Positions 11,542 through 25,958 of a stretch of 32,000 nucleotides of DNA are shown here, piece by piece. Position numbers and translations under genes: made by a program. The notes under the pieces were generated by a model. The model made no database searches. It saw only the letters and a program-made list of their open reading frames with translations, and was not told the origin of the DNA. Source of the DNA: Deferrisomatales bacterium (GTDB lineage: Bacteria > Desulfobacterota > Deferrisomatia > Deferrisomatales > Deferrisomataceae); assembly GCA_024277875.1 (NCBI GenBank), contig JAJRUI010000107.1, positions 1 through 32,000 on the forward strand, read 5' to 3'. The number at the start of each line of letters is the position of its first letter. Position 1 is the first letter of the stretch.

Positions 11542-12084
11542 TCAGCCCCAGCCCATGTTCGAGACCTTGTCCACCAGGGGCTGCCACCGGCCCTGGGCCC
11601 GCAGGATGAACTCGGCGAGTTCCCTGAGCATGCCCTGGCCGCCGGCCCGGCGGGTGACCAGGTGGGCGACGTCCTTGACCTCGGGCGCGCCGTTGGCCGG
11701 GGACACGGCGAACCCGACCCGGCGCATCGCGCCGATGTCGATGATCTCGTCGCCCACGTAGCACACCTCCTCGAGGTCGATCCCGAGCTCTGCGATCAGC
11801 TCCTGCATCTTGGTCCACTTGTCCTTGGCCATGTACACGCGCTTGATCCCGATCTCCTCGGCCCGGGCCAGCACGATCTTGGACTTGCGGGTCATCAGGG
11901 CCACCTCGATCTTGCTCATCATCAGGGCGTTGGCCCCGAACCCGTCGTCGTGGTGGAACGCCTGGAACTTCTCACCGGCCTCGTTGAACAGCACCGTGCC
12001 GCTGGTGAGCACGCCGTGCACGTCGAGCACCACCGCCTGGACCCGCTTGGCCCGTTCGATCGCGTCCATGAAGTCGTAAGCCAT
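11542..12084 (-). CDS. ppcD: KdsC-like HAD protein, phenylphosphate-carboxylase delta-subunit type, 180 aa
   Basis: Colinear with E. coli KdsC (recalled). LDVHGVLTSG corresponds to LDVDGVLSDG, AFHHDDGFG to AFNVRDGYG, and YVGDEIID to YVGDDLID. It sits between two UbiD paralogues, as the delta-subunit gene does in the known ppc cluster. Confidence 0.75.
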   Translation of the reverse strand: MAYDFMDAIERAKRVQAVVLDVHGVLTSGTVLFNEAGEKFQAFHHDDGFGANALMMSKIEVALMTRKSKIVLARAEEIGIKRVYMAKDKWTKMQELIAELGIDLEEVCYVGDEIIDIGAMRRVGFAVSPANGAPEVKDVAHLVTRRAGGQGMLRELAEFILRAQGRWQPLVDKVSNMGWG

Positions 12085-12169: not shown

Positions 12170-13582
12170 TCAGTCGAGCCCCAGTTCCGCCCACCGGGCC
12201 TGAATCCGCTCGAGTACCTCCGCGGACATCTCCACCTGCACCGGCTTGTCCTCCCACTCGAACGGCAGGGTGGCGTCCATGATGATCCGGGAGGTGATGA
12301 ACTTGTTCACCTTGTCGTGGAGCGCCGGGTCCAGCGGGGTGGACCGGCCCCGGTGGATGATCTGGGTGCTGCGCTCCGGGTCGTACCGGGTGGCCAGGGC
12401 CCACCACACCCGGGGCAGGTCGTCGGCCCGGATGTCGTCGTCCACGATGATCAGCCCCTTGAGGCCGTAGGTGCAGGTGTTGCTGGCGATGACGGCCGCG
12501 GCCACCTGGTTCGAGTGGCCCGGGTACATCTGCTTCACCGACACGATCGCCCAGAACCGGCCGCACGCCTCGGGGGGCATGTACACCGACTGGATCCCCC
12601 GGATCCCCATCCGGGTCAGCTCGGTCCACAGGGTGGCGTTGCGCACGAACGCGAGCATCATGTGGTTGTCGTTGACCGGACGGCCCACCGACGCGGCTAG
12701 CAGGATCGGGTCGTCGCGGTGGTAGATCCGGTGCACGTCGATCGCGGGTTTGGGCACCTGTTTGTAGATCTCTTCGGTGTAGTACCCGGTGTACTCCCCG
12801 AACGGCCCCTCGAGCCGGGGGTTGTCCCCATCGATGTACCCTTCGAGCACGATCTCCGCCGTTGCCGGGATCGGCAGGCCCGTGAGCGGCGCCTTGACGA
12901 TCTCCACGGGCTCGCCCCGCAGGGTGCCGACCACGTCGTACTCGTCCGCGTTCTCCACCATGGCGCTGCCCGCGAGCATCAGCAGGGGGTCGCACCCCAC
13001 CACCACGCAGATCGGCATCTTCTGGCCGGCCTTGCGGTACTTCTGGAGGATCCGGTCGCCCCGCTTGCCCTTGAGGATCTGGGCGCCCACGGTGTTCCGG
13101 TCGAGCACCTGGCTCCGGTAGGTGCCCAGGTTGATCTCCCCGGTCTCCGGGTCCTTGACCACCATGAAGCACGCGGTGCCGATGTACCGGCCGCCGTCCT
13201 TCTCGTAGAACTTGGGCGCGGGCAGCTTGTACAGGTCCACGTCGTCGCCCTCGATCACGTTCTCGAACACGGGCCCGGTGTCCACCTCCCTGGACCGGAT
13301 CACCTCGCCGATCGAGAGCTTCATCCACTCGTAGCTCAGGTCGCACATGCTCAGGTGGGGCGGCTTGCCCAGGGCCCGGGCCAGGCGCTTGGTGTTGCTG
13401 TACGCGCCGAACATCACCCGGCCGATGCTGTCCCTGACGTTCTCGAACAGCAGGGCGGGCCCGTCCCGCTCCTCCACCAACTTGGCGATGTGGGACATCT
13501 CCAGGTCCCAGTCCACCTCGGCGGAAACCCGTTTGAGGTCGCCCCCTTCCTCGCACTGCGCGATGAAATCCCGAAGATCCAT
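12170..13582 (-). CDS. UbiD-family large subunit of a phenylphosphate-carboxylase-like enzyme (alpha/beta type), 470 aa
   Basis: The start was moved to the ATG at 13582 (GGGAGG 7 nt upstream; MDLRDFIAQCEEGGDLKRV is a typical UbiD N-terminus). Blocks: GGRYIGT, NLGTYR, PICVVVGCDP, GPFGEYTGYY. Confidence 0.85.
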   Translation of the reverse strand: MDLRDFIAQCEEGGDLKRVSAEVDWDLEMSHIAKLVEERDGPALLFENVRDSIGRVMFGAYSNTKRLARALGKPPHLSMCDLSYEWMKLSIGEVIRSREVDTGPVFENVIEGDDVDLYKLPAPKFYEKDGGRYIGTACFMVVKDPETGEINLGTYRSQVLDRNTVGAQILKGKRGDRILQKYRKAGQKMPICVVVGCDPLLMLAGSAMVENADEYDVVGTLRGEPVEIVKAPLTGLPIPATAEIVLEGYIDGDNPRLEGPFGEYTGYYTEEIYKQVPKPAIDVHRIYHRDDPILLAASVGRPVNDNHMMLAFVRNATLWTELTRMGIRGIQSVYMPPEACGRFWAIVSVKQMYPGHSNQVAAAVIASNTCTYGLKGLIIVDDDIRADDLPRVWWALATRYDPERSTQIIHRGRSTPLDPALHDKVNKFITSRIIMDATLPFEWEDKPVQVEMSAEVLERIQARWAELGLD

Positions 13583-13633
13583 GTCGCTGCCTCCCGGTAC
13601 CCTCGATGGTTTGTGATGAACCCGCGTTTGATT

Positions 13634-13656
13634 GTCAAGGATAGCCGCGCCTTGAC
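13634..13656. promoter_or_regulatory. Inverted repeat GTCAAGG-N9-CCTTGAC in the LysR/ppc divergent region
   Basis: Perfect 7-bp arms at 13634-13640 and 13650-13656. The arms contain TTGACA (minus strand) and TTGACC (plus strand) hexamers. Confidence 0.35.
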
Positions 13657-13669
13657 CCCGAAGCAATTC

Positions 13670-13690
13670 ATATGTTTTTATGCAACATAT
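13670..13690. promoter_or_regulatory. AT-rich dyad ATATGTT-N7-AACATAT, candidate LysR-type regulator box
   Basis: Perfect 7-bp arms in the most AT-rich part of the 143-bp divergent intergenic region, 36 bp upstream of the LysR start codon. Confidence 0.45.
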
Positions 13691-13725
13691 AACCAAAACT
13701 ATGAGCCTGGGGGCAGAGGAGTCCG

Positions 13726-14649
13726 GTGATCAACCTCAACCAGCTGCGGGTGTTCCACGAGGCCGCCCGGTGCCAGAACTTCAGCCAGGCGGCCCGGAAC
13801 CTGTGCGTGACCCAGCCGGCCGTGACCGGCCAGATCCGGGCCCTGGAACGGGCGCTGGCCGTTCCCCTGTTCAAGCGCCGGGGCCGGCGCATGGCCCTGA
13901 CCGAGGCGGGCGCCCTCCTGTACCGCCGGGCCCGGGAGGTGTTCGAGCTGGAACGGGTGATGGAGCGGGAGATCGCCGAGGTCCGGGAACTCAAACGCGG
14001 GCTCCTGAAGATCGGTACCACCCAGACCTACGCCCGGTACCTGATGCCCGACCTGATCTCCCGGTTCCGGGCCGCGTACCCCCAGGTGAAGATCATCCTG
14101 GACGAGGGCAGCTCCCGGGACGTGTGCCGGAGCCTGCTGGACCTGCGGAACGAACTCGCCGTGGTGGCCGGCACGGACGGGATGAAGGGGGTGACGTTCG
14201 TTCCGTTCCGGGACGAAGAGGTGGTGCTGCTGGCGCACCCGGACGACCCCCTGGCCCGGGCGGGGCCCATCCGGTTCGCCGACCTGGACGGCCGCCTCGT
14301 GCTGATGCGGGAGGAGGGATCGAGCACCCACGCCCTGGTGCGGCGGTGCTTCGAGCGCCGGGGCCTGGCGCCCAACGTGCTCGTGGAGACGAGCAACGTG
14401 GACTTCATTAAGGAGATGGTGGAGAAGGGCGAGGGGGTCGCGTTCCTGGTGCGCTCTGCGATCCGACAGGAGGTGGCGTCGGGCCGGGTGCGGGTGGTGA
14501 CCGTGACCGACGAGGCGATGATCCTCCCCGTGTACATCGCACTGCCCGAGGGGCCGGCCCTGTCCCCGGCCGCCCGGGCGTTCCTCGAGATCCTGGAGAG
14601 CGAGAAGTCGGCCGGTGCCCGGGGGCCGGTGGGGGAGCCCCCGGGTTGA
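13726..14649 (+). CDS. LysR-family transcriptional regulator, 307 aa
   Basis: GTG start with GAGGAG 4 nt upstream. The N-terminal wHTH is NLNQLRVFHEAARCQNFSQAARNLCVTQPAVTGQIRALE. A LysR substrate-binding domain follows. It is divergent from the ppc-like operon. Confidence 0.9.
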   Translation: MINLNQLRVFHEAARCQNFSQAARNLCVTQPAVTGQIRALERALAVPLFKRRGRRMALTEAGALLYRRAREVFELERVMEREIAEVRELKRGLLKIGTTQTYARYLMPDLISRFRAAYPQVKIILDEGSSRDVCRSLLDLRNELAVVAGTDGMKGVTFVPFRDEEVVLLAHPDDPLARAGPIRFADLDGRLVLMREEGSSTHALVRRCFERRGLAPNVLVETSNVDFIKEMVEKGEGVAFLVRSAIRQEVASGRVRVVTVTDEAMILPVYIALPEGPALSPAARAFLEILESEKSAGARGPVGEPPG

Positions 14650-15030
14650 TCAGATCCCGTCGCCCGAGTACACGTCCGGGGCCACCCGCTCCGGCTCCTC
14701 GAAGGTCTCCACATGGGCGGGCCGCCGCACGCGCTGGACCGTGCCGTCGGGCCACCGGATCTCCCAGACCACCCCGCGGTCGCTGTGCTCGACCAGGTGC
14801 AGGTACCCGTTCCGCCGGGCCAGGGCGTACGGCAGCGCGACCTGGATCGCGTTGCGGGGGCACACCTTGACGCACGCGTAGCAGTCCCAGCACTCACCGG
14901 GCTCGCGCAGACGGGAGCGCCCCCGGGCGAAGTCCTTGACCACGACGTCCCCGGGGCACACCCGGACGCAGGGCGGCTCGGGGCTCGCCCCGCAGCCGTC
15001 GCACGCTTTCCAGTCGATCACGGCGGGCAC
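14650..15030 (-). CDS. AprB-like iron-sulfur subunit (adenylylsulfate-reductase beta family), 126 aa
   Basis: GTG at 15030 with AGGAGG 6 nt upstream. MPAVIDWKACDGC...PPCVRVCPGD...EPGECWDCYACVKVCPRNAI is colinear with the AprB two-ferredoxin-cluster region, and the WEIRWPDGTVQR tail resembles AprB MWTVKFRNGT (recalled). Confidence 0.8.
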   Translation of the reverse strand: MPAVIDWKACDGCGASPEPPCVRVCPGDVVVKDFARGRSRLREPGECWDCYACVKVCPRNAIQVALPYALARRNGYLHLVEHSDRGVVWEIRWPDGTVQRVRRPAHVETFEEPERVAPDVYSGDGI

Positions 15031-16745
15031 GGCGCACCTCCTGTGGCCGGCCCGGCGGGGGAGGGCCGGAGCGGTCGCCGAAACGTGTGGATCCGCCCGT
15101 CCGGCGTGTACCGGGAGTTCACGAAACAGCGCCACTCGTCCCGGGGCTCCGGGTGGTCCAGGCGGGTCTGGTAGCCGGGCCACCGGGTCTCCTCGCGGGC
15201 CTCCAGGTGGGCCACCACGGCCCGGGCGGTGAGCACCCGGTCGCGCACCTCCGCGGCCAGGAGGCGCTGGTGGGGGTCCCGGCCGCAGAGTTCGGCCAGG
15301 TCGCCCTCAAGGGCCTCCAACTCGGCCCGGGCCTTTGCGAGCCGGCGGCCGTGGAGTTCGTAGAACGTGCTGTGTCCCCCGGCCCACTCGTCCATCACCC
15401 GCTGGAGGCGCTCGGTGGCGTCCGTGGGATCGAGGGCTCCCCCCCGGGCCGCGGGTTGCCCGAGGGCGCGGGCCCGCTCCTCCGTCTGTGCGTCCACGCG
15501 CGGCCCCGGCAGGGGCAGCGCCCCTGCCGCGATGTCGGCTGCTGCCGATCGGGCCGCGATGAACCCCTCCACCCACGCCCCGCTCACGTACTTCTTCGGG
15601 GCACCGCCGGTCACGTCGCCGGCCGCGTACAGCCCGGGCACGGTGGCCCGCCGGCCCCCGTCTACCCACAACCCGCTGCCCGTGTGGCCGCCCAGGATGT
15701 ACGGGCCGCTCGTGGAGATCGTGACGGTCGCGCCGCCGGCGTCCAGGCCCTCGGCCGCCCACAGCGCGACCTGGGCCGGCGTCATGTCCAGGTACGCGCC
15801 GAGGACGTCGTCCCTGCCGCCGGCACCGGTCTGCCCCAGCCGGAGCACCACGGGGCCCCGGCCGGCCTTGCACTCCTCCAGCAGGGCCCGGAGCCGCTGG
15901 GGGGTGGTGAGCCGGTCGGTGTTCCACGCCCGGGCGTACCGGTCGTGGAACCGCTCGCCGAGCAGGTTTTCCTCCCGGCCGCCGAACGTCTGCGCCAGGG
16001 TTCCGGTGGGCGCTGCGGTGTGGAGGATCCGGGTCGGGACGAACCGCATCTCCAGGGTGGTCAACTCGGCGCCGGCCCGCAGGGCCGCTGCGTAGCCCGC
16101 GCCCGTGTTGAACGGGCAGTACCACATCCGGTTGCGGGCGTCGCCCCGGTTCGGAGTCCGGTACAGCCCTGCGGCACCGCCCGTGGCCAGGATCACGGCC
16201 CGCGCCCGGACCTCGAGCAGTTCCCCCGTGCGCACCCCCAGGAAGTAGGCGCCCCGTACCGCGCCGTCCCGGACGCGCAGGTCCACCAGGGCGTGCCTGT
16301 GGACCACCCGGGCCCCGCAGCCCCGTACCCGGCGGGCCAGGATCGGCTTGAGGCTCTCCCCGAAGATCTGTATCGAGCGGGGACCCTTTGGGAGCGGCCG
16401 GCCGCGGCCGTCCCTCGGGATCGGCAGGCCCCACGACTCGACTCGGTGGGTGGCGCCGTTGATCTGCTCGGCCAGGGAGCGCACGAGGTCTTCGCGCATC
16501 ACGCCGTGGGCGTCGCGGCGCACGGAGGCCACGTAGTCGTCCACCGCCACTCCCTCGGGCAGGTACGCGTTGATCGCGTTGAGCCCCATGGCCAGGCAGC
16601 CGGACCGGCTGACGTGGGCCTTGTCCACCAGGGTGACGTCCAGGTGGGGCGCCACCTCCCGGGCCTCCACCGCAGCGGCACACCCGGCCGCACCGCCCCC
16701 CACCACCAGCAGGTCGGTATCCAGGACGTCGACATGCGTTTTCAT
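15018..16745 (-). CDS. AprA-like FAD flavoprotein (adenylylsulfate-reductase alpha family), 575 aa
   Basis: It has the DLLVVGGGAAGCAAA dinucleotide fold. It is colinear with recalled Desulfovibrio AprA through VDKA..RSG...GLNAIN, RMWYCPFNTGAGY (compare RAWYPVWNAGSTY), LEMRFVPTR, GGHTGSG, and the C-terminal EETRWPGY...WRCFVNSRYTPDGRIHTFRRP (compare ESRYPGFY...WKCFVNSKYDP..KIFKKP). It is about 90 aa shorter than canonical AprA. Confidence 0.85.
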   Translation of the reverse strand: MKTHVDVLDTDLLVVGGGAAGCAAAVEAREVAPHLDVTLVDKAHVSRSGCLAMGLNAINAYLPEGVAVDDYVASVRRDAHGVMREDLVRSLAEQINGATHRVESWGLPIPRDGRGRPLPKGPRSIQIFGESLKPILARRVRGCGARVVHRHALVDLRVRDGAVRGAYFLGVRTGELLEVRARAVILATGGAAGLYRTPNRGDARNRMWYCPFNTGAGYAAALRAGAELTTLEMRFVPTRILHTAAPTGTLAQTFGGREENLLGERFHDRYARAWNTDRLTTPQRLRALLEECKAGRGPVVLRLGQTGAGGRDDVLGAYLDMTPAQVALWAAEGLDAGGATVTISTSGPYILGGHTGSGLWVDGGRRATVPGLYAAGDVTGGAPKKYVSGAWVEGFIAARSAAADIAAGALPLPGPRVDAQTEERARALGQPAARGGALDPTDATERLQRVMDEWAGGHSTFYELHGRRLAKARAELEALEGDLAELCGRDPHQRLLAAEVRDRVLTARAVVAHLEAREETRWPGYQTRLDHPEPRDEWRCFVNSRYTPDGRIHTFRRPLRPSPAGPATGGAPCPP

Positions 16746-16802
16746 CCGAGACCCTCGTCGTTGTCGCGGCCGGCCCGCAGGCCCTGCCGCCGGCGGGATA
16801 GG

Positions 16803-16853
16803 CTCAGCAGGTCGCTGAAAAACCCACGGACGGGGTTTTCAGCATCCTGTTAG
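16803..16853. repeat. Palindromic intergenic repeat, copy A (REP-like family)
   Basis: CTCAGCAGGTCGCTGAAAAACCCACGGACGGGGTTTTCAGCATCCTGTTAG. The core stem is CTGAAAAACCC/GGGTTTTCAG with a 7-nt loop. It overlaps the TAA stop of the SiR-like gene and fills the SiR-aprA gap. Confidence 0.55.
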
Positions 16854-18136
16854 TCCCAGGCTGCGATCACCTCCAGCAGTTCGTCCAGGGACGCCCTTTC
16901 CACGACCGCCCGCCCCAGGCCGGTTCCGTCCCGGCGCAACAGGTCGAACCGGGGCGTCCGGTCGCCGGTCGCGTCCCGGACCAGCCCCGAGCACAGCACC
17001 CCGGCGTCCGTCACCTGGGGCTGTGCGCAGGAGTTGGGGCAGCCGCACACGGCCCAGGAAAAGGCACGTCCCCGGGGGCCGAGGCTGTCGAGCACCCGGC
17101 CGGCCACCTCCCGGGTGGGCGCCAGGGCCTTGGGGCAGGTCCGGGCGCCCGGGCACACCTGCATCGCCACGGTTCCGTCGCCGTGCTGCCCGGCCCAGCC
17201 GGCCGCGTCCAGTTCCCGTTCGAGGGCCGGCCGTCCGGCCGGGGACTCGGGGTGCAGGGCCACGTCCTGGGACGGAAGCAGGGTCAGCTGCCCTGCGCAG
17301 CGGCGTTCGGCGATCCTCGCCAGCCGGGAGAACCGGCTGGCGGACAGGTCGCCCGCGAACACCCGCACCACCACGGGGCGGGTCCGGTCCCCGGCCGGCC
17401 GGGGACCGGCGGCCTCTGCCGGCCGAGGTCGCGGCTCCGGTGCCGGCAGTTCCCCGTCCACGAGGGAGAAAAACGCCTCGCGCCCGACCGAGGCGACCAG
17501 GTGCTTGAGCCGTTTTCCGGGCGGCACGTGCTCCCGGTACACGCGCACCACGGCACCGATCACCGGCAGGACCCGCTCCTCCGGCAGCGCGCTGGCGTAC
17601 GGAAGCCCCTCGGCCGGCGCCCGGCCGAGGCCCCCGGCGAGCCACACGTCCCAACGGGCCTGGCCGCCCACCGAGCCCGCGTACACGAGCCCCACGTCCT
17701 GGATCAGGTGCCGGGCGCCGTCGTACCCGGCGTCCACGCCGACCTTGAACTTCTTGGGCAACCCCTCGAACGCCGGGTTTCCCGTGCAGCGCGCGTGGAT
17801 GCAGCGGGCCAGGGCCACAGCAGGGGCGCGGCCGGGGCCTGCCGGCGTGCTCACCGCGACCCCGCGGACCGTGCCGCCGCAGGCGCCCCGGGACGTGAGC
17901 CCGGCCGGGCCGAGGCGGCCCACGGCGTGTTCGAGGCGGTCCCGGCGCAGCCCGTGCAGTTCCACGCTCATCCGGGTGGTCAGGTGCAGGTGCCCGTCGG
18001 CCAGCTGGTCCGCGACCGCGCACAGCGTCCGGACCTGGCCCGCGGCCAGGACGCCCCCGGGCACCTTGACCCGCAGCATGTACAGCCCGGTCTGGGTCTG
18101 CTCGTAGATCCCGTTCGAGCGAAGGTCGGTATCCAT
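16850..18136 (-). CDS. Nitrite/sulfite-reductase-family siroheme [4Fe-4S] hemoprotein (small SiR-like), 428 aa
   Basis: The start was moved to the ATG at 18136; upstream of it lies AT-rich non-coding DNA. The first repeat is GLYMLRVKVPGGVL...LHLTTRMSVELHGL...ACGGTVRGV. The C-terminal cluster-binding motif is CPGARTC ... CGCPNSC (CX5C...CXCX3C). Confidence 0.8.
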   Translation of the reverse strand: MDTDLRSNGIYEQTQTGLYMLRVKVPGGVLAAGQVRTLCAVADQLADGHLHLTTRMSVELHGLRRDRLEHAVGRLGPAGLTSRGACGGTVRGVAVSTPAGPGRAPAVALARCIHARCTGNPAFEGLPKKFKVGVDAGYDGARHLIQDVGLVYAGSVGGQARWDVWLAGGLGRAPAEGLPYASALPEERVLPVIGAVVRVYREHVPPGKRLKHLVASVGREAFFSLVDGELPAPEPRPRPAEAAGPRPAGDRTRPVVVRVFAGDLSASRFSRLARIAERRCAGQLTLLPSQDVALHPESPAGRPALERELDAAGWAGQHGDGTVAMQVCPGARTCPKALAPTREVAGRVLDSLGPRGRAFSWAVCGCPNSCAQPQVTDAGVLCSGLVRDATGDRTPRFDLLRRDGTGLGRAVVERASLDELLEVIAAWD

Positions 18137-18170
18137 CGGTCTCGATAGGTGTAGGGTTTCGGGGTGTATC

Positions 18171-18199
18171 AAGATAGTGTACACTATTTTATATGTCAA
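18171..18199 (-). promoter_or_regulatory. Sigma70-type promoter for the SiR-aprA-aprB operon
   Basis: The minus strand reads TTGACA (18199-18194), N17, TATCTT (18176-18171), about 35 nt upstream of the ATG at 18136, inside a conspicuously AT-rich 154-bp island. Confidence 0.55.
18174..18187. promoter_or_regulatory. Perfect 14-bp palindrome ATAGTGTACACTAT overlapping the promoter spacer and -10 (candidate operator)
   Basis: The sequence is self-complementary, and it overlaps the -10 hexamer of the predicted promoter. Confidence 0.5.
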
Positions 18200-18290
18200 G
18201 AATATGATTTCAAATAGTCGTGATAAAAGATGTGTTTTGCGGGGAGGGGGGGACGGAGCGGTCCGGGCAGGAACTGGGGCGTTCGAGCGG

Positions 18291-19019
18291 TCAGGAGCCG
18301 GGAACCGGGGGCGGGGCGGACGGGCAGTGGTGCTCCCAGCCCAGGATCGTGGCGGCGCCGACGGTGTCGGCGCCGTAGGCGAGGACCCGGACGCCCGGGG
18401 GGAGCTCGGGTTCGATCCGGTCCCACTCGCCGTGGGTGAGGGACGTGCCGCCCACCAGGACCACACCGCAGCGGCGGACCGCCTCGGGCACGGGGGCCAC
18501 CCGGGGTACGGGTCCGCCGGCCGGCCCGGCAGCGGACAGCACCAGCACCGGGTTTTCCGGCAGCAGGGCGTCCGCCATGCACGGGTTGGCCGCGGCTAGA
18601 CACACGCAAGGGCACGCCGGAGGGGGGTGGGCGAGCCGCTCCCGCAGGCGCGCGGAGCACCCGTCGGCCCCGGCCGTTTCGCACAGCAGCACCGGGGGCG
18701 GCCGCTCCCCGGTGAAGGCGAGCACCGCGTTCAGGACGGCCAGCAGCCGGGCCCGCCCCGCGGGGGTGTCGGCGGGCTGCGCGAGCAGCTGGTCCAGGGT
18801 CCCCTCTAACCGGGCCACCAGGGGGGACAGCCCGAACCCCCCGGCGCCGCCCACCGTGGCCCGCAGCACGAAGCGGCCTTCCGGCGGCGGCAGGCAGTGG
18901 AGCCCCGGCCACCGGTCCGGCACGGTGGTCACCCGAACCGGCTCGGAGCCCAGCCGCTCCCCGGCCACCCGGGCCCGCAGCCCGGCCCGCAGCCGTTCGA
19001 ACGCGGGGCGTACGGTCAC
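18291..19019 (-). CDS. Cys-rich hypothetical protein, possibly DUF364/Rossmann-like (putative metal-chelation) family, 242 aa
   Basis: The GTG at 19019 overlaps the TGA of the upstream gene (GTGA). The C-terminal VVLVGGTSLTHGEWDRI...VRVLAYGAD resembles the DUF364 block (D-V-V-x-I-T-G-S-T-L-V-N-G-T-L). Cysteine cluster: CETAGADGC ... CPCVC ... C. The family call is weak. Confidence 0.55.
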   Translation of the reverse strand: MTVRPAFERLRAGLRARVAGERLGSEPVRVTTVPDRWPGLHCLPPPEGRFVLRATVGGAGGFGLSPLVARLEGTLDQLLAQPADTPAGRARLLAVLNAVLAFTGERPPPVLLCETAGADGCSARLRERLAHPPPACPCVCLAAANPCMADALLPENPVLVLSAAGPAGGPVPRVAPVPEAVRRCGVVLVGGTSLTHGEWDRIEPELPPGVRVLAYGADTVGAATILGWEHHCPSAPPPVPGS

Positions 19020-20746
19020 GGCCCGGGCCGTTCGTAGGGCCAGCCCACCACGCCGCCCTCCAGGAACCGCACGTTGTCCAGCCCGGCGCCCTGGAGGATC
19101 CGCTGGCCCTCGTACCCCCGCAGCCCGATCTTGCACAGGAGGACCACCGGCCGGTCCTTCGGGATCTCGTCCGTGCGGGCCCGCAGGGTGCCCAGGGGCA
19201 CCAGCCGGGCCCCGTCGAACGGCAGCGCCCGGTGTTCGGCCGGGCTGCGCACGTCCACGAGCACCGGGGGCTCCCCGGAGCGGCGTTCTTCCCGGTACGC
19301 GGCGGGATCCACCGCGCTGGCCCACCCGTCGAGCTTGTTGCGGGCGGCGTTGGCAGCGGTAAGCAGCAGGTCCATGGGCGGGGCGTAGGGTGGCGCGTAC
19401 ACCAGGTCCAGGTTGGCCACCTGGTCCACGGTCATGCCGGTGGACACCGGGGCCACGGCCGCGTCCACCCGGCGGGCCACGTCCCCCCGGCCCACCCCCT
19501 GGACCCCCAGGACCCGCCGGGACCCCCGGTCCACCACGATCTTGAGGAGGATCGGGGCCGCGTCCTCCATGAAGTGGGGCTTGTCGCCGCCCACCACCAG
19601 GGCGGTCAGCACGTCGAACCCGTGCTGGCGCGCCTCGGCCTCTCCCAGGCCGGTGCGGGCCACGGTGAGGTCGAACAGCCGCATCACCAGGGAACCGGCC
19701 ACCCCAGGGAACGTGTCCACGTCCCCGAGCACCGCGTTGGTGCCAGCCACCCGCCCCTCCTTGTTGGCGGTGGAGCCCAGGGGCACCCAGCACGGTTTGC
19801 CGCTGACCACGTGGACCTTCTCGGCGCAGTCCCCGGCCGCGTAGATGTCGGGGTCGCTGGTCCGCATGTGGGGGTCCACCCGGATCGCTCCGGAGGGCCC
19901 GAGTTCGAGTCCGGCGGCCTCGGCCAGGGCCACCTCGGGCCGCACCCCGGTGGCCACCAGCACCAGGTCTGCGGGCAACTCGCCCGCGGTGGTGCGCACG
20001 GCCGTGGCCCGGGCGCCGTCCCCCACGATCGCCTCCACCGAGGTCCCGGTGAGGATCCGGACCCCCTGGGAGTCGGCGTACCGGGACAGGTGGCCGGCCA
20101 GCTCCGGATCCACCGGCGGGAGCACCTGGGGCAGGCGTTCCACCACGGTCACCAGGTCGCCCCGTTCCCGGAGGGCCTCGGTCACCTCGAGCCCGATCAG
20201 GCCCGCGCCCACCACCACGGCCCGCAGCGGCCGGGCGTCCTGGAGCCCGCCGATGTCCTTGTCCCGCAGCAGTTCGGCGATCTCGTCCAGGGCCGCCCGC
20301 AGGCGGCGGGCGTCCTCGTACGTTTTGAGGAAGAACACGTTGGGCCGGTCCATGCCGGGCACCGGCGGCGCCACCGGCCGGGCGCCGGTGGCGAGCACCA
20401 GCTTGTCGTAGGGCAGGGTGCCGGTCTCGCCGGTCTCCAGGTTGCGCACCGCGACCCGCTTGCTGGCCCGGTCGATCGAGACCGCCTCGGTGCGCAGGAG
20501 CAGCCGCACATCCTTGACGTCGTCGAAGTAGTCCCGGTCCCGCAGCTTGCCGGACGGGGTCTTCATCAGCTCGTCCAGGGCCTTGACCCGGCCGCTCAGG
20601 TAGTACGGGAACCCGCACGCGCCGTAGCTCGCGTGGGGACCCCGTTCGAGCACGGTGATCTCGGCCCCGGGATCCAGGCGGCGGGCGCGGGCCGCCGCCT
20701 TGGGACCGGCCGCCACCCCCCCGATGATCACGATCCGTCTGCCCAC
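19016..20746 (-). CDS. CoA-disulfide-reductase-family FAD/NAD(P) oxidoreductase with C-terminal rhodanese domain (Npsr/CoADR-RHD type), 576 aa
   Basis: The start was moved to the GTG at 20746 (GGGAGGAG 5 nt upstream). Motifs: RIVIIGGVAAGPKAA, the redox Cys context SYGACGFPYYLSG, a second dinucleotide fold VVVGAGLIGLE, AAGDCA, and the rhodanese active-site loop LLCKIGLRG. Confidence 0.85.
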   Translation of the reverse strand: MGRRIVIIGGVAAGPKAAARARRLDPGAEITVLERGPHASYGACGFPYYLSGRVKALDELMKTPSGKLRDRDYFDDVKDVRLLLRTEAVSIDRASKRVAVRNLETGETGTLPYDKLVLATGARPVAPPVPGMDRPNVFFLKTYEDARRLRAALDEIAELLRDKDIGGLQDARPLRAVVVGAGLIGLEVTEALRERGDLVTVVERLPQVLPPVDPELAGHLSRYADSQGVRILTGTSVEAIVGDGARATAVRTTAGELPADLVLVATGVRPEVALAEAAGLELGPSGAIRVDPHMRTSDPDIYAAGDCAEKVHVVSGKPCWVPLGSTANKEGRVAGTNAVLGDVDTFPGVAGSLVMRLFDLTVARTGLGEAEARQHGFDVLTALVVGGDKPHFMEDAAPILLKIVVDRGSRRVLGVQGVGRGDVARRVDAAVAPVSTGMTVDQVANLDLVYAPPYAPPMDLLLTAANAARNKLDGWASAVDPAAYREERRSGEPPVLVDVRSPAEHRALPFDGARLVPLGTLRARTDEIPKDRPVVLLCKIGLRGYEGQRILQGAGLDNVRFLEGGVVGWPYERPGP

Positions 20747-20869
20747 GATGACTCCTCCCGGCGGGCGTCCCCCGCCACACGATGCGAAACAGGCAAGCAA
20801 CGCCCGTTCTGATGCGCTGGCCGGGAAGTAGTCACAGAAAAAAGCGTGAAATCGGGCGGCGGGCCCGGG

Positions 20870-21937
20870 TCAGGCGGGGGGGAGTACCACGGTGAGCAGG
20901 TCGGGCAGGGTGTCGAGAACGAAGTCCGGCCGGTGGGGGCCGAGCCCCCGTAGCACGCTCTCGCCGCCGGACACCACGGCCACCGGCACGCCCGCGGCCC
21001 GGGCCGCGCCCAGGTCGGCCAGGCTGTCCCCGACCATGAGGGCTTCGTCGGCAGGGCAGCCCAGGCGGTCCAGGGCCATCTCGAGCCCGTGGCCGGCCGG
21101 CTTCAGATGCGGGGCGTCGTCCCGGGTGACCACGGCGGCCAGGTGCTGGTCGAGCCCCAGGCGGCCGAGGACCCGGTCCGTGCCCGCCCGGCCGATGTTG
21201 GTGACCAGGGCCAGTCGGCACCCGGCCCGGGACAGGCCAGCCAGGGTGTCCCGGGCGCCCGGTCGCAGACTCCACCGCTGCTCGGCGTCCAGGTCGTACC
21301 GGTCGTAGATCGGCCGCAAGGCCGCCTCGATCCTCTGGCGCAGCGCGCCGGACCCCGCCGCTTCCAGGGCTCTTTGCCGGATCCCGGCGTAGTTCTGCGC
21401 GGCCACCCGGTCCGGCGGGATCCCGAGGGCTGTCACGGCCCGGCGCAGGTCGGCCTCGGCCCGTTCCAGGTCCCACTGGAAGTCCACCAGGGTGCCTTCG
21501 AGGTCGAACAGGACCGCGCGGTGGCGGGGATTGCCTGGAGCGGGGAACAGCAGCTCCAGCGCGTCCCCCTGGGCGAGGTCGAGGGCGCCCCGCAGCCCCA
21601 TCCCGGCCACCACCTCCACCACGTCCTCCGGGTGGCCGGCCACCCGGGGCACCACCACCACGCCCGCGAACACGCCGCCGATCCGGACCCGGTACGCGTC
21701 GGCCGAGCAGAACGCCGGGTCGGGGGGCACCAGCCGGAAGTCCGGCGTCCGGGCCCGGACGGCGGCCCACGCGGCCCGGTCCGCCGGGCCGGCGGGGTGG
21801 AGGTTCAACGTGCCGGGGAACGGGTCGATCCGGGCCCCGGCACGCAACTGCCCGGTCACCCAGTCGAGCCGCACGAAGCCGGCTGCCTCCCGGCAGCCGG
21901 CCCGCACGGTTCCGGTGAGTCGAACGTCAGCGTCCAC
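20870..21937 (-). CDS. Fusion protein: N-terminal archaeal-type (CTP-dependent) riboflavin-kinase-like RibK/DUF120 domain plus C-terminal class-IA HAD phosphatase domain, 355 aa
   Basis: GTG at 21937. The N-terminal GTVRAG..GFVRL...PFPGTLNL...GVVVVPRVAGHPEDVVEVVA...QGDALELLF is colinear with recalled MJ0056. HAD motifs: FDLEGTL (I, D-x-E), LVTN (II), LKP (III), GDSLADLGAA (IV). Confidence 0.78.
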   Translation of the reverse strand: MDADVRLTGTVRAGCREAAGFVRLDWVTGQLRAGARIDPFPGTLNLHPAGPADRAAWAAVRARTPDFRLVPPDPAFCSADAYRVRIGGVFAGVVVVPRVAGHPEDVVEVVAGMGLRGALDLAQGDALELLFPAPGNPRHRAVLFDLEGTLVDFQWDLERAEADLRRAVTALGIPPDRVAAQNYAGIRQRALEAAGSGALRQRIEAALRPIYDRYDLDAEQRWSLRPGARDTLAGLSRAGCRLALVTNIGRAGTDRVLGRLGLDQHLAAVVTRDDAPHLKPAGHGLEMALDRLGCPADEALMVGDSLADLGAARAAGVPVAVVSGGESVLRGLGPHRPDFVLDTLPDLLTVVLPPA

Positions 21938-21946
21938 GCCCGCGGC

Positions 21947-22465
21947 TCAGTGCGGGTAGGGCGCGTGGGAGTCCGGCAGGGGGGTCTCCAGGGGCCAGCT
22001 CTCCCCCCGGTACCGGATCACGGGTTTGGCCCCGTCCCGGGTCCACCACCCGGTCACGAGTCCCAGGAACAGGTCGTGGGTGCCGCAGGCGGCCACCTTG
22101 AGCACCCGGCACTCGTACGAGGCCGCGGCCCCCCCGACCCGGGGGCTCTCGACGCTGTCGCTAGGGACGAGTTCCAGGCCGAGTTTCCGGAGCTTGTCCG
22201 GGTCGTTCCCCGGGATCGTGCCCGCCAGGATCGCCTGGCGGTCCTGGGCCGCGTCCACCACGTTGAGGGTGAAGTTGCGCCCCTCGTTCACCAGCCGGTG
22301 GGCCGTGGACCCGGGCTTCAGGTACACCACCGCGATCACCGGGTCGTAGGACACCCACATGGTGGTCACGGCCACCACGTCGGTGGCACCGCCGGCCCGG
22401 ACGGCCAAGAACACCTCGGGGCACGGCAGGCTAGAGAGCAGCTCGTCTCGTCGGGCGGATTGCAT
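21947..22465 (-). CDS. Flavin-reductase-like (FMN-binding split-barrel) protein, 172 aa
   Basis: The ATG at 22465 has GAGGAG 5 nt upstream, 28 nt after the ppsB stop. The pattern VVAVTTMWVSYDPVIAVVYL...STAHRLVNEGRNFTLNV...D is typical of PF01613-type flavin reductases. Confidence 0.75.
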   Translation of the reverse strand: MQSARRDELLSSLPCPEVFLAVRAGGATDVVAVTTMWVSYDPVIAVVYLKPGSTAHRLVNEGRNFTLNVVDAAQDRQAILAGTIPGNDPDKLRKLGLELVPSDSVESPRVGGAAASYECRVLKVAACGTHDLFLGLVTGWWTRDGAKPVIRYRGESWPLETPLPDSHAPYPH

Positions 22466-22493
22466 GGTCGTCTCCTCGGGCGCGGCCGCCGGT

Positions 22494-23591
22494 TCAGGTG
22501 GACGCGCACTTGTTTTCGAAGTTTACCTTCACCCCGGCCATCAGCCCGCCGATGATCGATTCCATGGCCGTCTTGGGTTTGTCGGTCACGGCCTTGGTCT
22601 GTTTGCGGGACCAGACCGTTTCGGGCCGTGCCTGGAGGATCACGATGCTGTCCGGGAACGGCAGGTCCTCGTCCACGGCCCACTCCACGTCCATGGGCCG
22701 TCCGTAGTGCTTCTCGATCCGGCGGGCCAGTTCGGTGAGCTCCCGGATCTCCTCGTCGGTGATCGACGCCTTCTCCCGGTCCGGTTCCGGGACCGCCCGG
22801 ACCTGCACGCCCTCCTCGGACGACACCAGCAGGTACGCCTCGGGCTTGGGCACCACGTTCCTGCGGATCACGTCGAAGGTGACCTTGTCCACCAGGAAGT
22901 CGTCCGGGGTGATGTCCCCGGACACGACCCCCTCGCCGAACCCCCACGCCGCGTTGATCGCGACCTTGGACCGGTCGCCGTTGATCGGGTTCAGGGTGAA
23001 CAGCACGCCCGAGCTGCGGGCGTTGGCCATTTTCTGGATTCCCACCGAGATGCGCACGTTCTCGTGGCTGAACCCCTTCTCCTCCCGGTACGCGATCACC
23101 CGGTCGGTGAACAGGCTGGCCCAGCACGCCCGTACCTTGTCGACCACCGCGTCCTCGCCGACCACCCACAGGTAGGTGTCCTGGAGCCCGGCGAACGACG
23201 CGTCCGCCAGGTCTTCCAGGGTGGCGCTGGAGCGAACGGCCACGGGCAGGTCGCCGCCGCCGCTCCGGTCGCACAGCTCCCGGTACGCGAGGCGAATCGC
23301 GTTTTCCACCGGGCCGGGGATCGCCGTGGCGTGGATCATGCGGCGCACCTCCTGCCCCACCTCGTCCACGCACGCGCCGGAAGAGGTCTTTTGGAGCACC
23401 TTGCAGATTGGGTCCCGCAGCCCGGTCTCCACCAGGAAGTCGTAGTACGCGTCGGTGGTGACCGCGAACCCGGGGGGCACCCGGATGCCGGCGTGGATCA
23501 GTTCTCCCAGGCTCGCGCACTTGCCCCCGACCCGGGGGGAGTGCTCCGACCGGCACGTTTCGAACCACAGGATGGCGTGTTCGTCAGCCAT
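22494..23591 (-). CDS. ppsB: Phenylphosphate-synthase beta-subunit-like protein (PEP-synthase N-terminal ATP-grasp/PPDK_N domain only), 365 aa
   Basis: Motifs: GGKCASLGEL, PPGFAVTTDAY, VAVRSSATLEDLADASFAGLQDTYL, GVLFTLNP, GFGEGVVSG. It is a stand-alone nucleotide-binding domain placed right after the His-domain protein, as in the known pps system. The phenolic substrate is not provable from sequence. Confidence 0.82.
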   Translation of the reverse strand: MADEHAILWFETCRSEHSPRVGGKCASLGELIHAGIRVPPGFAVTTDAYYDFLVETGLRDPICKVLQKTSSGACVDEVGQEVRRMIHATAIPGPVENAIRLAYRELCDRSGGGDLPVAVRSSATLEDLADASFAGLQDTYLWVVGEDAVVDKVRACWASLFTDRVIAYREEKGFSHENVRISVGIQKMANARSSGVLFTLNPINGDRSKVAINAAWGFGEGVVSGDITPDDFLVDKVTFDVIRRNVVPKPEAYLLVSSEEGVQVRAVPEPDREKASITDEEIRELTELARRIEKHYGRPMDVEWAVDEDLPFPDSIVILQARPETVWSRKQTKAVTDKPKTAMESIIGGLMAGVKVNFENKCAST

Positions 23592-23595: not shown

Positions 23596-25431
23596 TCACG
23601 CCTCCTCGATGAGTTCGATGGTGCCGGTGTTGCCGTCCACCCGGACCCGCTGGCCGCTCTGGAACGTCTGGGTCCCGGTGCCGGTGCCCACCACCGCGGG
23701 CAGGCCGTACTCGCGGCACACGATCGCGGCGTGGCACATGATGCCGCCCACGTCGGTGACCGCGGCCTTGATCTTGGTGAACGCAGGGGCCCAGCTCGGG
23801 CTGGTGGTGGGGCACACCAGCACGTCCCCGTCCTGGAGGGTGGAAATGTCGGCCACCGTGCGGCACACCCGCACCGTGCCCTCCACCACGCCGGGGCTGC
23901 CCGCGAACCCGGTCAGCTTGCTGCCGTCGCCGTCCTTGCCCTTGGCCCACGCGGCCAGGGAGTCGTTGGTGATCCCCCACAGCACGATGGTGAACGGCTC
24001 GGTGATCGTCTCGGGCGGGGTGCCCACAGCCGGCAGCGCGTTCCACTGCTTGAACTTCTCCATCACGCCCTTGCGCCACGCGATCTCGGGGCCCCAGTGG
24101 AGGTTGCCCATCGGCTCGGTGCCGGTGGCCCAGGAGGTCACCAGGTCCCACATGGCCTGCTTGATCTCGTGGCGGTTCAGGAGCCAGATGTCCTCGACGT
24201 CGGGCCAGAACCCGGCCTTGACGAACCGGCGGGACACCTCGCGCATCTTGTTCCAGAAGATCGAGTGGAACCAGTGCTCCACGTAGAACAGGTGGCTCTC
24301 CACGTACGGGAACACCCGCTGGGCCGTGCCCACCAGGTTGTCGAACGTCTGCCGGTCCTCGTCGGTGGCCAGCAGGGCCCGGTACTCGGTGATGATCCGG
24401 TCGCGCTCCCGCTTGAGCTCGCCCAGGGGCCGGTCGATCGAGTCGCCCTTCTTGATCTTCTGGATGTACAGCCGGATCGACGCCAGGGGGATCTCCAGCT
24501 CGTCGAGCCACGACGAGTCGTGGTGGAACCACCCGGTCCCGGTGGAGATGTAGAACCACGGGTACTTGGCCTTCTCGAACCGCTGTTCCCAGATCCGGCC
24601 GTCGTTGGACTGCTTGAGCTCCGCGAATAGCTCGTCCACGCTCTTGTCGGCCAGGATCTGGTCCTCGATGCCCAGTTCACACGCCAGCCGCGCCAGCCGC
24701 TTCAGCTCCTCGTCGGGCTGGTACAGGATCACGTCGATCCCGCTCACCATCTGGGTCACCCGCTGGAGCGGGATGTCCGGGAACGCCTTCTGGCAGAAGT
24801 CGAGCAGGGTCACGTACGCGGCGTAGCCCAGGTTCAGGAACTCGAAGTGGTACTGCCACGCGAGGATGCCGAGCTGGATCAGGCGGTCGTAGGCCTTGAG
24901 CAGTTCGTACCCGCTGCTCTTGCCCACCGCGTCGAACACCACCGAGACGTCCTCCATCTCGGGCAGCTCGGGGATGTCGAGTTCGTCCAGGTCCTTGATG
25001 ACCTGGCTCATCTTGGTCTCCCACTTCGCGTACAGCTCGTCCCAGTTCTGGTAGTAGTAGCCGGCCCGTTCCATGAACCACTCGACCCGCTGGGGGATGT
25101 CCTCCGGGTTCGCCACCGGCACCGGCGAGATGTAGATGCGGCCGTTGATGATCCGGTGGTCCACGCCCAGGGCCGGGGGAACCATGAAAATCCGGGTGTT
25201 GTACTGGGACAGGGCCAGGAACCATGCCTCGTCCCAGATGATGTCGAACGGGTAGATCGGCTCGGGGTAGTGGAGCCCATCGTAGAACCAGAACATGGAC
25301 TCCTCGTACGCCTTGCGCTTCGGGTCGTCCGTGGTGAAGCGGTAGTAGTACGGGTACATCCGCTCCCAGCCCTCGGTGCCTGGGATCTGCTCGACGTCGT
25401 GGGGCTTCGGGAAACCGCTGCTGTCGGCCAT
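23596..25431 (-). CDS. ppsA: Phenylphosphate-synthase alpha-subunit-like protein (PEP-utilising enzyme mobile His domain at the C-terminus), 611 aa
   Basis: The start was moved to the ATG at 25431 (AAGGAGG 5 nt upstream). The C-terminal swivel domain is GSPGVVEGTVRV...GDVLVCPTTSPSWAPAF..AAVTDVGGIMCHAAIVCREYGLPAVVG, with the phospho-His context GGxxCHAAIV. The long Trp/Tyr-rich N-terminal region matches my recollection of PpsA-type proteins. Confidence 0.82.
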   Translation of the reverse strand: MADSSGFPKPHDVEQIPGTEGWERMYPYYYRFTTDDPKRKAYEESMFWFYDGLHYPEPIYPFDIIWDEAWFLALSQYNTRIFMVPPALGVDHRIINGRIYISPVPVANPEDIPQRVEWFMERAGYYYQNWDELYAKWETKMSQVIKDLDELDIPELPEMEDVSVVFDAVGKSSGYELLKAYDRLIQLGILAWQYHFEFLNLGYAAYVTLLDFCQKAFPDIPLQRVTQMVSGIDVILYQPDEELKRLARLACELGIEDQILADKSVDELFAELKQSNDGRIWEQRFEKAKYPWFYISTGTGWFHHDSSWLDELEIPLASIRLYIQKIKKGDSIDRPLGELKRERDRIITEYRALLATDEDRQTFDNLVGTAQRVFPYVESHLFYVEHWFHSIFWNKMREVSRRFVKAGFWPDVEDIWLLNRHEIKQAMWDLVTSWATGTEPMGNLHWGPEIAWRKGVMEKFKQWNALPAVGTPPETITEPFTIVLWGITNDSLAAWAKGKDGDGSKLTGFAGSPGVVEGTVRVCRTVADISTLQDGDVLVCPTTSPSWAPAFTKIKAAVTDVGGIMCHAAIVCREYGLPAVVGTGTGTQTFQSGQRVRVDGNTGTIELIEEA

Positions 25432-25533
25432 GGGGACCTCCTTCTGGAACGGGTGTGGAAAAACGAACGGGGTTTCGTGCCGTCGTCGCTGGACCGGTTC
25501 CGGGCCGGCACGGGCGCCTGAAAAAGATGAAAA

Positions 25534-25548
25534 GCAATGGTCGTGCCA
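25534..25548 (-). promoter_or_regulatory. Sigma54 (-24/-12) promoter of the ppsA operon
   Basis: The minus strand reads cTTGGCACGACCATTGCTTTT, that is TGGCAC-N5-TTGC with GG and GC correctly spaced. It lies about 100 nt upstream of the ppsA ATG. Confidence 0.7.
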
Positions 25549-25613
25549 AGGCGGTTTTTGCGGCATGTGTACTGAAACGCTGTTTAGCTGACGAGGCGGG
25601 TTCCCGTCAAAAA

Positions 25614-25629
25614 GCGTCACCCGTGACGC
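25614..25629. promoter_or_regulatory. Perfect dyad GCGTCAC-CC-GTGACGC, candidate enhancer-binding-protein site (UAS 1)
   Basis: A 16-bp palindrome whose centre lies about 75 bp upstream of the -24 element. Confidence 0.5.
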
Positions 25630-25676
25630 ATCTGGGCCTCCGGCTGCGTTTCGGCCCGTCCGGGCGCCCGCACAGG

Positions 25677-25692
25677 GCGACACCGGTGACGC
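25677..25692. promoter_or_regulatory. Near-dyad GCGACAC-CG-GTGACGC, candidate UAS 2
   Basis: It has one mismatch to the UAS 1 half-sites. The centre-to-centre distance to UAS 1 is 63 bp, about six helical turns. Confidence 0.42.
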
Positions 25693-25883: not shown

Positions 25884-25922
25884 GCCGCGGACGGCCCACG
25901 CCGTCCGCGGCCTTTTGTTTTT
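25884..25922 (+). terminator. Attenuator hairpin 1 with T-run
   Basis: GCCGCGGACGGC (25884-25895), loop ccac, GCCGTCCGCGGC (25900-25911), then CTTTTGTTTTT. Confidence 0.62.
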
Positions 25923-25958
25923 CGGGGCCGCGGGAGACCGCGGCCCCGGGTCGTTTTT
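25923..25958 (+). terminator. Attenuator hairpin 2 with T-run
   Basis: CGGGGCCGCGG (25923-25933), loop gaga, CCGCGGCCCCG (25938-25948), then GGTCGTTTTT. The 3' arm of hairpin 1 (CCGCGGCC) can alternatively pair with the 5' arm of hairpin 2 (GGCCGCGG). Confidence 0.55.

Follow-up and report, generated by a model that had tools for sequence, protein, structure and literature searches.

The DNA analyzed here (32,000 nucleotides, positions 1 to 32,000 of contig JAJRUI010000107.1 from a Deferrisomatales bacterium; hereafter the window) is an anaerobic phenol-to-4-hydroxybenzoate cluster that encodes a phenylphosphate synthase, a phenylphosphate carboxylase, the flavin prenyltransferase UbiX and a CoA ligase. 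Directly after the phenylphosphate synthase genes ppsA and ppsB, and on the same minus strand, lie a gene for a flavin-reductase-like split-barrel protein of 172 aa (21947-22465) and a gene for a fusion protein of 355 aa (20870-21937), in which a domain resembling the archaeal CTP-dependent riboflavin kinase RibK (PF01982; aa 1-132, 21542-21937) precedes a class-IA HAD domain (aa 138-355, 20870-21526). We hypothesize, at about even odds (a probability of roughly 0.5), that this pair comprises accessory cofactor-supply genes of the phenol cluster and forms the flavin branch that would serve UbiX and the UbiD-type phenylphosphate carboxylase, which depends on prenylated FMN (prFMN). The strongest evidence for this idea is comparative: recurrent gene fusions and adjacencies tie RibK-like domains, split-barrel flavoproteins, UbiX, isopentenyl diphosphate (IPP) isomerase and NUDIX hydrolases to one another.

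According to this hypothesis, the RibK-like domain would convert riboflavin to FMN with a nucleoside triphosphate, the split-barrel protein would reduce FMN to FMNH2 or hand FMN over, and UbiX, which requires reduced FMN (PMC6541611), would prenylate FMNH2 and so feed prFMN to the carboxylase. The fused HAD domain is predicted to be an active, kinase-coupled phosphatase; the most economical guess places its substrate in the flavin pathway (FMN or 5-amino-6-ribitylamino-uracil phosphate), with dimethylallyl diphosphate (DMAPP) or IPP as less likely candidates.

The gene pair downstream of ppsB

The gene map of the window (G+C content ~72%) was built from third-codon-position G+C analysis and profile searches, and it reproduces the order that a sequence-only reading of this DNA had proposed, in which ppsA, ppsB, the 172-aa gene and the two-domain gene follow one another on the minus strand. 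Re-measurement returned the same gaps, 28 nt between ppsB and the reductase gene (22466-22493, which includes the ribosome-binding site GAGGAG) and 9 nt between the reductase gene and the fusion (21938-21946). The ppsB gene (22494-23591) encodes the ATP-binding subunit of a phenylphosphate-synthase-type dikinase (PF01326, E 2e-113) and ppsA (23596-25431) its His-carrier subunit (NF006152, 981 bits; PF00391), the latter within an open reading frame of 23596-25683 whose probable start (MADSS) lies at 25431. No terminator-like site was found between ppsB, the reductase gene and the fusion. A sigma-54 promoter-like site (TGGCACGACCATTGC, TGGCAC-N5-TTGC; 25534-25548, minus strand) matches the -24/-12 pattern perfectly ~100 nt upstream of the probable ppsA start, and a sigma-54 activator and a PAS sensor kinase that would fit such a site are encoded within the window (2580-6521); the match is a single one, chance would give about 1.6 sites in each window when up to one mismatch is allowed, and it is not significant alone, its position being suggestive. 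Co-transcription of ppsAB, the reductase gene and the fusion is plausible from this layout. The UbiD-type genes (12170-13696, 10027-11484 and 8397-9875) and ubiX (7729-8325) lie 7-13 kb from the gene pair.

A search of 5.8 billion proteins returned the same two-domain architecture in ~45 clusters at 90% identity, which are 35-86% identical to the window protein; nearly all are metagenomic or belong to metagenome-assembled genomes labelled Deltaproteobacteria or Deferrisomatales, and none is informatively named. The AlphaFold model of the fusion protein has a pLDDT of 89.5 and a pTM of 0.71. For genomic context we compared ten contig sets from exact-protein look-ups and 28 loci that the alignment of the RibK-like domain retrieved in a metagenome scan (individual loci are cited by L number), annotated by tblastn with the window proteins and by profile searches. 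Gene order is kept across independent lineages, and the fusion architecture is real and conserved rather than a product of chance.

The N-terminal half of the fusion had been described as colinear with archaeal RibK on the strength of the peptides PFPGTLNL, GVVVVPRVAGHPEDVVEVVA and QGDALELLF, all of which occur in the protein, and profile searches bear the assignment out. PF01982 (CTP-dep_RFKase) matches aa 11-129 over profile positions 1-119 of 121 (E 1e-17), and its 64.6 bits exceed the gathering cutoff of 25. The AlphaFold model of the domain (pLDDT 92.7) has the cradle-loop-barrel fold of MJ0056 and RbkR, and in a Foldseek search against the PDB its sole matches were archaeal CTP-dependent riboflavin kinases (5trd and 2vbu at TM 0.81-0.84 and 0.79-0.83, respectively, with an rmsd of 2.1-2.8 Å; 2vbv, 2oyn, 2p3m and 2vbs), the next, unrelated match appearing at E 0.27.

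Motifs were compared in an alignment of the domain with MJ0056, the Thermoplasma protein Ta RbkR and bacterial homologues, following published definitions and roles of the GTLN, GxGEG, PxxT and LRxxxxL motifs and of the metal and phosphate ligands (bioRxiv 10.1101/2021.04.15.440061). The phosphate and Mg ligand positions are kept (G14, N45 of G42-T43-L44-N45, and E108 of the IEII strand); G14, G42, T43, N45 and E108 are invariant across the bacterial and archaeal sequences, and L44 is at least 90% conserved. The cytosine-base loop LRxxxxL is likewise kept as L115-R116-G-A-L-D-L121 (LRGALDL), with R116 invariant, and the bacterial clade has additional invariants in Trp26 and Cys77 (the latter among homologues in alignments A1, A3 and A4). 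Judged by these residues, the RibK-like domain diverges within its fold family and retains an intact core for phosphoryl transfer, and its substrate is probably riboflavin. In the glycine-rich loop the clade consensus reads G-[RK]-[RQ]-E-A-A-G-F; a Gly-to-Arg change there was considered as a marker of the phenol clade and rejected, as the ubiX-adjacent forms read G-V-G-E-A and L013 reads G-R-G-E-A.

The profile of the RibK-like domain retrieves 1,929 representatives at E ≤1e-3 from 1.84 billion clusters at 50% identity, counted irrespective of taxon. Stand-alone RibK-like proteins with an archaeal-type SGxGxG loop, which also show the bacterial-clade features LPWV, GFC and YPED, are found at L104-L119 (GC 0.41-0.48); near them, none of the phenol-cluster reference proteins searched was detected, except for weak CoA-disulfide-reductase-like matches in four loci.

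For the C-terminal half, the class-IA HAD assignment and the reading of motif I as D-L-E-G-T likewise hold. HAD profiles match aa 140-350, with PF00702 (E 7e-28, 98.8 bits) and PF13419 (E 2.5e-22, 80.3 bits) placed at aa 140-322, and motif I (FDLEGTLVDFQW) reads F-D145-L-E147-G-T, departing from the standard DxDx(T/V) at Asp+2, the general acid/base, which is Glu147. The HAD core of D145 (the nucleophile), K279, G303-D304 and D308 is invariant in the family, and the LVTN strand is present. Foldseek returned only generic HAD-IA phosphatases (2hsz, 3d6j and 4ex7 at E ~1e-12), sequence searches were no more specific, and scores fall short of the phosphoglycolate phosphatase and PpaX equivalogs (TIGR01449, 98.3 vs 180 bits; NF009804, 79.5 vs 218). 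A D-x-E motif I has a precedent in enolase-phosphatase E1 (human 1yns and yeast UTR4, 2g80), which reads L-L-D-I-E-G-T, and because that enzyme is active, phosphatase activity of the HAD half would be compatible with D-x-E. Glu147 is invariant both in the pps-linked clade and in stand-alone relatives. Indeed, the signature DxEGTLVDFQW is shared by many stand-alone HADs of 205-238 aa, some beside a separate RibK-like gene after ppsB (L012 and L013) and others in unrelated, housekeeping-like contexts (L009-L011); the occurrence of the signature in the latter led us to reject the Asp-to-Glu exchange as a specialization to pps.

Fusions of RibK-like and HAD domains extend well beyond this clade. 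Among the 150 best profile matches to the RibK-like domain are 47 multidomain proteins, 30 of which contain a HAD; most RibK-HAD fusions carry a canonical D-x-D motif I, and both domain orders exist. A reverse-order example (L108:676-1782) has an N-terminal HAD with the motif I D-V-G-G-T (Gly at Asp+2) and a C-terminal RibK-like domain, and immediately follows a UbiD-like gene; its contig is 2.3 kb long.

The 172-aa protein, previously called flavin-reductase-like from its sequence, matches PF01613 at E 5e-21 and well above the gathering score (75.9 vs 27 bits). Its closest solved relatives are the FMN-binding protein PH0856 (E 8e-16) and flavoredoxin, and its scores against characterized NAD(P)H:flavin reductases (RutF, HpaC, StyB and HsaB) reach at most 30 bits against orthology cutoffs of 200-255. 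Orthologues of 63-74% identity lie after ppsB in L007 and between ppcA and ppcD in L098, L100, L102 and L103. In most lineages the RibK-like gene has a split-barrel partner, and in four (the window, L001, L002 and L007) a split-barrel gene directly follows ppsB.

Related loci and the proposed role

In the phenol clusters among the loci compared, RibK-like genes recur in three arrangements. In the first, found in seven lineages (the window, L001, L002-4, L007, L012, L013/14/95 and L101), ppsA-ppsB is accompanied by a flavin reductase or PNPOx-like gene and by a RibK-like gene fused or adjacent to a D-x-E HAD. The second has the order ppsA-ppsB-ppcA-flavin reductase-ppcD-ppcB-ppcC-UbiD-UbiX-RibK-like-PNPOx-like and lacks the D-x-E HAD; in its three lineages (L098; L099/L100/L102; L103) the RibK-like gene overlaps the 3' end of ubiX and is followed by the PNPOx-like gene, and in L098 the reading frames of all three genes overlap. 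The third combines a divergent second pps pair with a NUDIX-PNPOx fusion and a fusion of a RibK-like domain to a type-2 IPP isomerase (IDI-2) (L096, L097 and L105), and has a variant with a NUDIX gene, a PNPOx-RibK-like fusion (P0111) and an IPP isomerase (L008); RibK-like domains are thus fused to IDI-2, or to a PNPOx-like domain beside NUDIX, in four lineages. The isomerase assignment in the RibK-like fusion exceeds its equivalog cutoff (TIGR02151, 312 vs 281 bits). IPP isomerase is a source of DMAPP, and its type-2 form is FMN-dependent. NUDIX homologues stand beside, or are fused with, PNPOx and RibK-like genes in L008, L012, L096, L097 and L105.

The third arrangement is illustrated by L096 (4932-7450), where genes for the NUDIX-PNPOx-like (362 aa) and RibK-like-IDI-2 (477 aa) fusions overlap by 4 nt (with counterparts in L097, L105 and L008); the pair lies downstream of a second, divergent ppsA'/ppsB' of 38-50% identity to those of the window and is followed by a canonical p215-ppsA-ppsB-ppcADBC cluster. 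A conserved 215-aa protein without a Pfam match is encoded directly upstream of ppsA in L001 (12995-13642), L002 (5719-6366), L096 (8696-9343) and L097; it is absent from the window, where a trp operon diverges from ppsA, and could be a further pps accessory protein.

We favor flavin supply because the RibK-like gene overlaps ubiX, because RibK-like domains are fused to IPP isomerase, and because the reductase orthologue stands inside the ppc operon at four loci; the adjacency of the reverse-order fusion in L108 to a UbiD-like gene adds support. Several observations weigh against it. The NCBIfam RibK equivalogs score far below their cutoffs (NF040694 ribK_Meth, 30.6 vs 168 bits; NF010762, 47.5 vs 279), and to our knowledge no bacterial PF01982 protein has been biochemically characterized. 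The GxGEG nucleotide loop is altered to G14-C-R-E-A18 in the window protein, with the first Gly and the Glu alone retained, and in the riboflavin motif PxxTxx the invariant P97 is kept and the Thr replaced (P-R-V-A-G-H), at a site whose riboflavin contacts are reportedly mostly through the backbone (bioRxiv 10.1101/2021.04.15.440061). Bacteria normally have RibF for FMN synthesis (PMC5397151). With respect to context, the most frequent neighbor of the D-x-E-clade module is ppsB, not ubiX: the module lies directly downstream of ppsB in six of the seven lineages (in the seventh, L001, it is ~2 kb upstream of ppsA), and UbiD/UbiX are found within 10 kb in only three of the seven (L001 has neither in the 10 kb to either side, and in L007, L013 and L101 contig ends limit the view). 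Moreover, canonical RibK-HAD fusions with a PNPOx-like neighbor occur with no pps, UbiD or UbiX gene in reach (L005 and L124), and one at L123 has neither that neighbor nor pps, UbiD or UbiX.

Since such fusions occur outside pps, UbiD and UbiX loci, RibK-HAD, whether or not it has a split-barrel partner, is a module of bacteria in general, and phenol clusters have recruited one version of it; and because kinase-HAD fusions arose repeatedly and independently, the HAD would be expected to act on the metabolite family of the kinase. The sequence-only proposal of a dedicated supply module for UbiX therefore stands in part: RibK-like and reductase genes are linked to prFMN genes at other loci, but RibK-HAD also occurs away from pps, UbiD and UbiX. 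As to the possibility it had raised, that homologous fusions might lie mostly apart from UbiX and UbiD, the D-x-E orthologues belong mostly to pps loci, and the wider architecture does occur elsewhere.

A more specific suggestion had been that the HAD converts DMAPP to dimethylallyl monophosphate (DMAP) for UbiX. The DMAP-specific PaUbiX has Phe181 where the DMAPP-specific UbiX of A. niger (AnUbiX) has Gln203, a position that is not alone in determining donor use (PMC6541611). Gln occupies the AnUbiX Q203 position in all cluster UbiX proteins examined (the window, L002, L012, L098, L100 and L103), and in the PDB the window UbiX matches the fungal PAD1 best. Phenol-cluster UbiX enzymes may thus use DMAPP, and because they carry the Gln of the DMAPP-using type, a DMAP-forming step may be unnecessary. 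We also considered whether NUDIX and D-x-E HAD proteins, if both form DMAP, exclude each other; the complementarity is not clean, the window and L012 having both and the ubiX-adjacent loci neither. On these sequence comparisons a DMAPP-to-DMAP role is mildly disfavored, because RibK-HAD is widespread, the UbiX proteins are of the Gln type, NUDIX and HAD co-occur, and a plant enzyme, AtFMN/FHy, offers the precedent of a bifunctional riboflavin kinase/FMN hydrolase (Sandoval and Roje 2005, as cited in PMC9678776). The stand-alone D-x-E HADs in unrelated contexts weigh against it as well.

General flavin homeostasis, in which RibK-HAD and the split-barrel protein would interconvert riboflavin and FMN and be merely co-induced in a flavin-hungry catabolic island without a channel to UbiX, is in our judgment unlikely. 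The precedents for it are flavin-interconverting plant enzymes, AtFMN/FHy and the Nudix FAD pyrophosphatase AtNUDX23 (PMC9678776). It would also account for the breadth of RibK-HAD fusions and their mostly canonical motif I, for the fusions with PNPOx-like neighbors in L005 and L124, and for the D-x-E HADs in housekeeping-like contexts; however, the ubiX frame overlap, the IDI-2 fusion and the UbiD-like adjacency recur independently, and a housekeeping role does not predict them. An accessory role in the dikinase itself, with the split-barrel and RibK-like/HAD proteins replacing the CBS-type PpsC and stimulating or regulating the phosphorylation of phenol (by binding nucleotides or releasing phosphate, for instance), would explain the prevalence of the RibK-like/HAD module after ppsB and of the split-barrel gene, in four lineages, in the position of ppsC in Thauera. 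No Pfam match to the CBS domain, the hallmark of PpsC, was found among the scanned window proteins, including both encoded after ppsB, and in L096, L097 and L008 the NUDIX, PNPOx, RibK and IDI-2 genes come after a second pps-like gene or pair, a divergent one. Yet the RibK-like gene follows ubiX rather than pps in three lineages, where the reductase gene lies between ppcA and ppcD, the IPP isomerase fusions have no evident link to a dikinase, and homologous modules exist without any pps gene, so that we consider such subunits quite improbable.

The least probable reading in our assessment is that the RibK-like domain phosphorylates another alcohol (pyridoxal/pyridoxine, in a manner resembling B6 salvage, or a prenyl alcohol) or serves as a flavin or nucleotide sensor. 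The departures from characterized RibKs in GxGEG and PxxT, the clade-specific Trp26 and Cys77 and the low equivalog scores would accommodate it, and the commonest partners of the domain, HAD and PNPOx-like proteins, belong to enzyme classes of B6 salvage. A sensor would find a parallel in RbkR, whose kinase domain doubles as one (PMC5397151). On the other side, the cytosine loop is kept, as are the ligands for phosphate and Mg, the PF01613 partners (the window and L007) and the fusion to the FMN-dependent IDI-2 point to flavin, and the PNPOx-like proteins match only weakly and are no PdxH orthologues. Flavin supply to UbiX could, conversely, be part of something larger, a dedicated oxygen-independent toolkit with which anaerobic degraders of aromatics produce prFMN, in which the split-barrel and RibK-like proteins, together with a D-x-E HAD, IDI-2 or NUDIX protein, would furnish FMNH2 and the dimethylallyl donor for UbiX on demand, a PNPOx-like or reductase-like protein might mature prFMNH2 oxidatively, and bacterial homologues of RibK, a kinase regarded as confined to Archaea, would be the hallmark. 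Oxidative maturation of prFMNH2 requires O2 in vitro. We regard this extension as doubtful, less probable than general homeostasis and slightly more probable than dikinase subunits.

Other genes of the window

The carboxylase genes ppcA (12170-13696), ppcD (11542-12084), ppcB (10027-11484) and ppcC (9739-10026), assigned by profile searches like the third UbiD-like gene (8397-9875), lie on the minus strand, as does ubiX (7729-8325; NF004685, 256 bits). Beyond them are a gene for a conserved 180-aa protein (p180; 7176-7721, plus strand), which begins MEIHLSIHESREGW and has no Pfam or NCBIfam match, and a gene that profile searches identify as a NudE-like NUDIX hydrolase (6534-7199, minus strand), so that p180 sits between the NUDIX and UbiX genes. 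Homologues of p180 (49-58% identity) directly follow the RibK-HAD fusion in L001; in L002-L004 they come after the CoA ligase.

The remainder of this end of the window encodes a PAS histidine kinase (5337-6521, plus strand), a GHMP-fold protein (4028-5359, minus strand), a sigma-54 response regulator (2580-~4027, minus strand), a Phenol_MetA_deg outer-membrane protein (1308-2495, plus strand) and an aromatic-acid CoA-ligase-like protein (20-1321, plus strand). The GHMP-kinase-fold protein, whose gene is flanked by those of the sigma-54 regulator and the sensor kinase and was not detected at the other loci compared, resembles beta-ribofuranosylaminobenzene 5'-phosphate synthase weakly and below threshold; that synthase acts on 4-aminobenzoate or 4-hydroxybenzoate.

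Between the pps and ppc operons, adjoining a LysR regulator gene (13726-14649, plus strand), lies a block of sulfur and redox genes (14650-20800, minus strand) with no counterpart in the other phenol loci examined. It encodes a CoA-disulfide-reductase-like protein that has a rhodanese domain at its C-terminus (19016-20800, 70 nt downstream of the fusion gene), a sulfite/nitrite-reductase-like protein (16850-18466) and a pair consisting of an FAD_binding_2 protein (15018-16745) and a 4Fe-4S ferredoxin (14650-15183). On the far side of ppsA, a divergent trp operon begins at 25833 (plus strand), and the leader of its trpE-G-D-C-(F)B genes contains two strong, GC-rich terminator-like hairpins of 12-13 bp, each followed by a T-run (25884-25950, plus strand), a pair reminiscent of a transcription attenuator.

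Comparison with known systems

The domain families involved are known; their bacterial occurrence in the case of RibK, the array of fusions and their location within UbiX/UbiD catabolic clusters appear undescribed. In the open-access literature we found no description of a bacterial RibK-HAD and flavin-reductase module in UbiX/UbiD clusters, in agreement with the sequence-only reading, which knew of none, and neither the paper on aniline in D. anilini nor that on the benzene cluster mentions these genes. UbiX/UbiD enzymes function in anaerobic phenol activation, reportedly also in that of phthalate, benzene and naphthalene, and are of use in biocatalytic carboxylation and decarboxylation. The locus and its relatives provide concrete candidate genes for the supply of reduced FMN and prenyl donor to UbiX and for prFMN maturation, especially in strict anaerobes, and if the hypothesis is correct, co-expression of both proteins could raise yields of holo-UbiD in engineered hosts.

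The archaeal RibKs (MJ0056 and the kinase domain of Thermoplasma RbkR; EC 2.7.1.161) share with the window domain the fold, PF01982, GTLN, Gly14, Glu108 and LRxxxxL. The window domain differs in its bacterial host (RibK orthologues have been stated to be absent from Bacteria; PMC5397151), its low identity (24-26%), its G-[C/R/K]-[R/Q]-E-A loop, the lost Thr of PxxT and its Trp26 and Cys77, and also in its fusion to a HAD, the domains of its relatives being fused to IDI-2 or to PNPOx-like domains. The HAD half shares core motifs and the HAD-IA fold with class-IA phosphatases of the phosphoglycolate phosphatase/PpaX-like type, and the D-x-E-G-T motif I with enolase-phosphatase E1, to which sequence similarity was not detected; below all equivalog cutoffs, it forms a signature subfamily of its own (DxEGTLVDFQW).

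With the two-component flavin reductases (Fre, RutF, HpaC and StyB) the 172-aa protein has the PF01613 domain in common. Such systems deliver reduced flavin to a partner enzyme, as exemplified by RutF (PMC7662398), which matches the role proposed here. The proposed client would differ, being a prenyltransferase, UbiX, and not a monooxygenase. In Thauera aromatica, PpsC is a CBS-domain stimulatory protein encoded directly after ppsB; the reductase gene of the window occupies the same operon slot, but its product has an unrelated fold, and neither it nor the fusion protein matches a CBS domain.

AtFMN/FHy has an N-terminal HAD and an ATP-dependent kinase of the eukaryotic/bacterial type, whose fold is unrelated, whereas the kinase domain of the window protein belongs to PF01982 and is itself N-terminal; the plant enzyme also stands outside any pps, ppc or ubiX operon context. 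Both proteins unite a riboflavin-kinase-type domain and a HAD phosphatase in one polypeptide, and AtFMN/FHy is the only kinase-HAD fusion of flavin metabolism that we found described (PMC9678776). The likeness between the two is convergent, not homologous.

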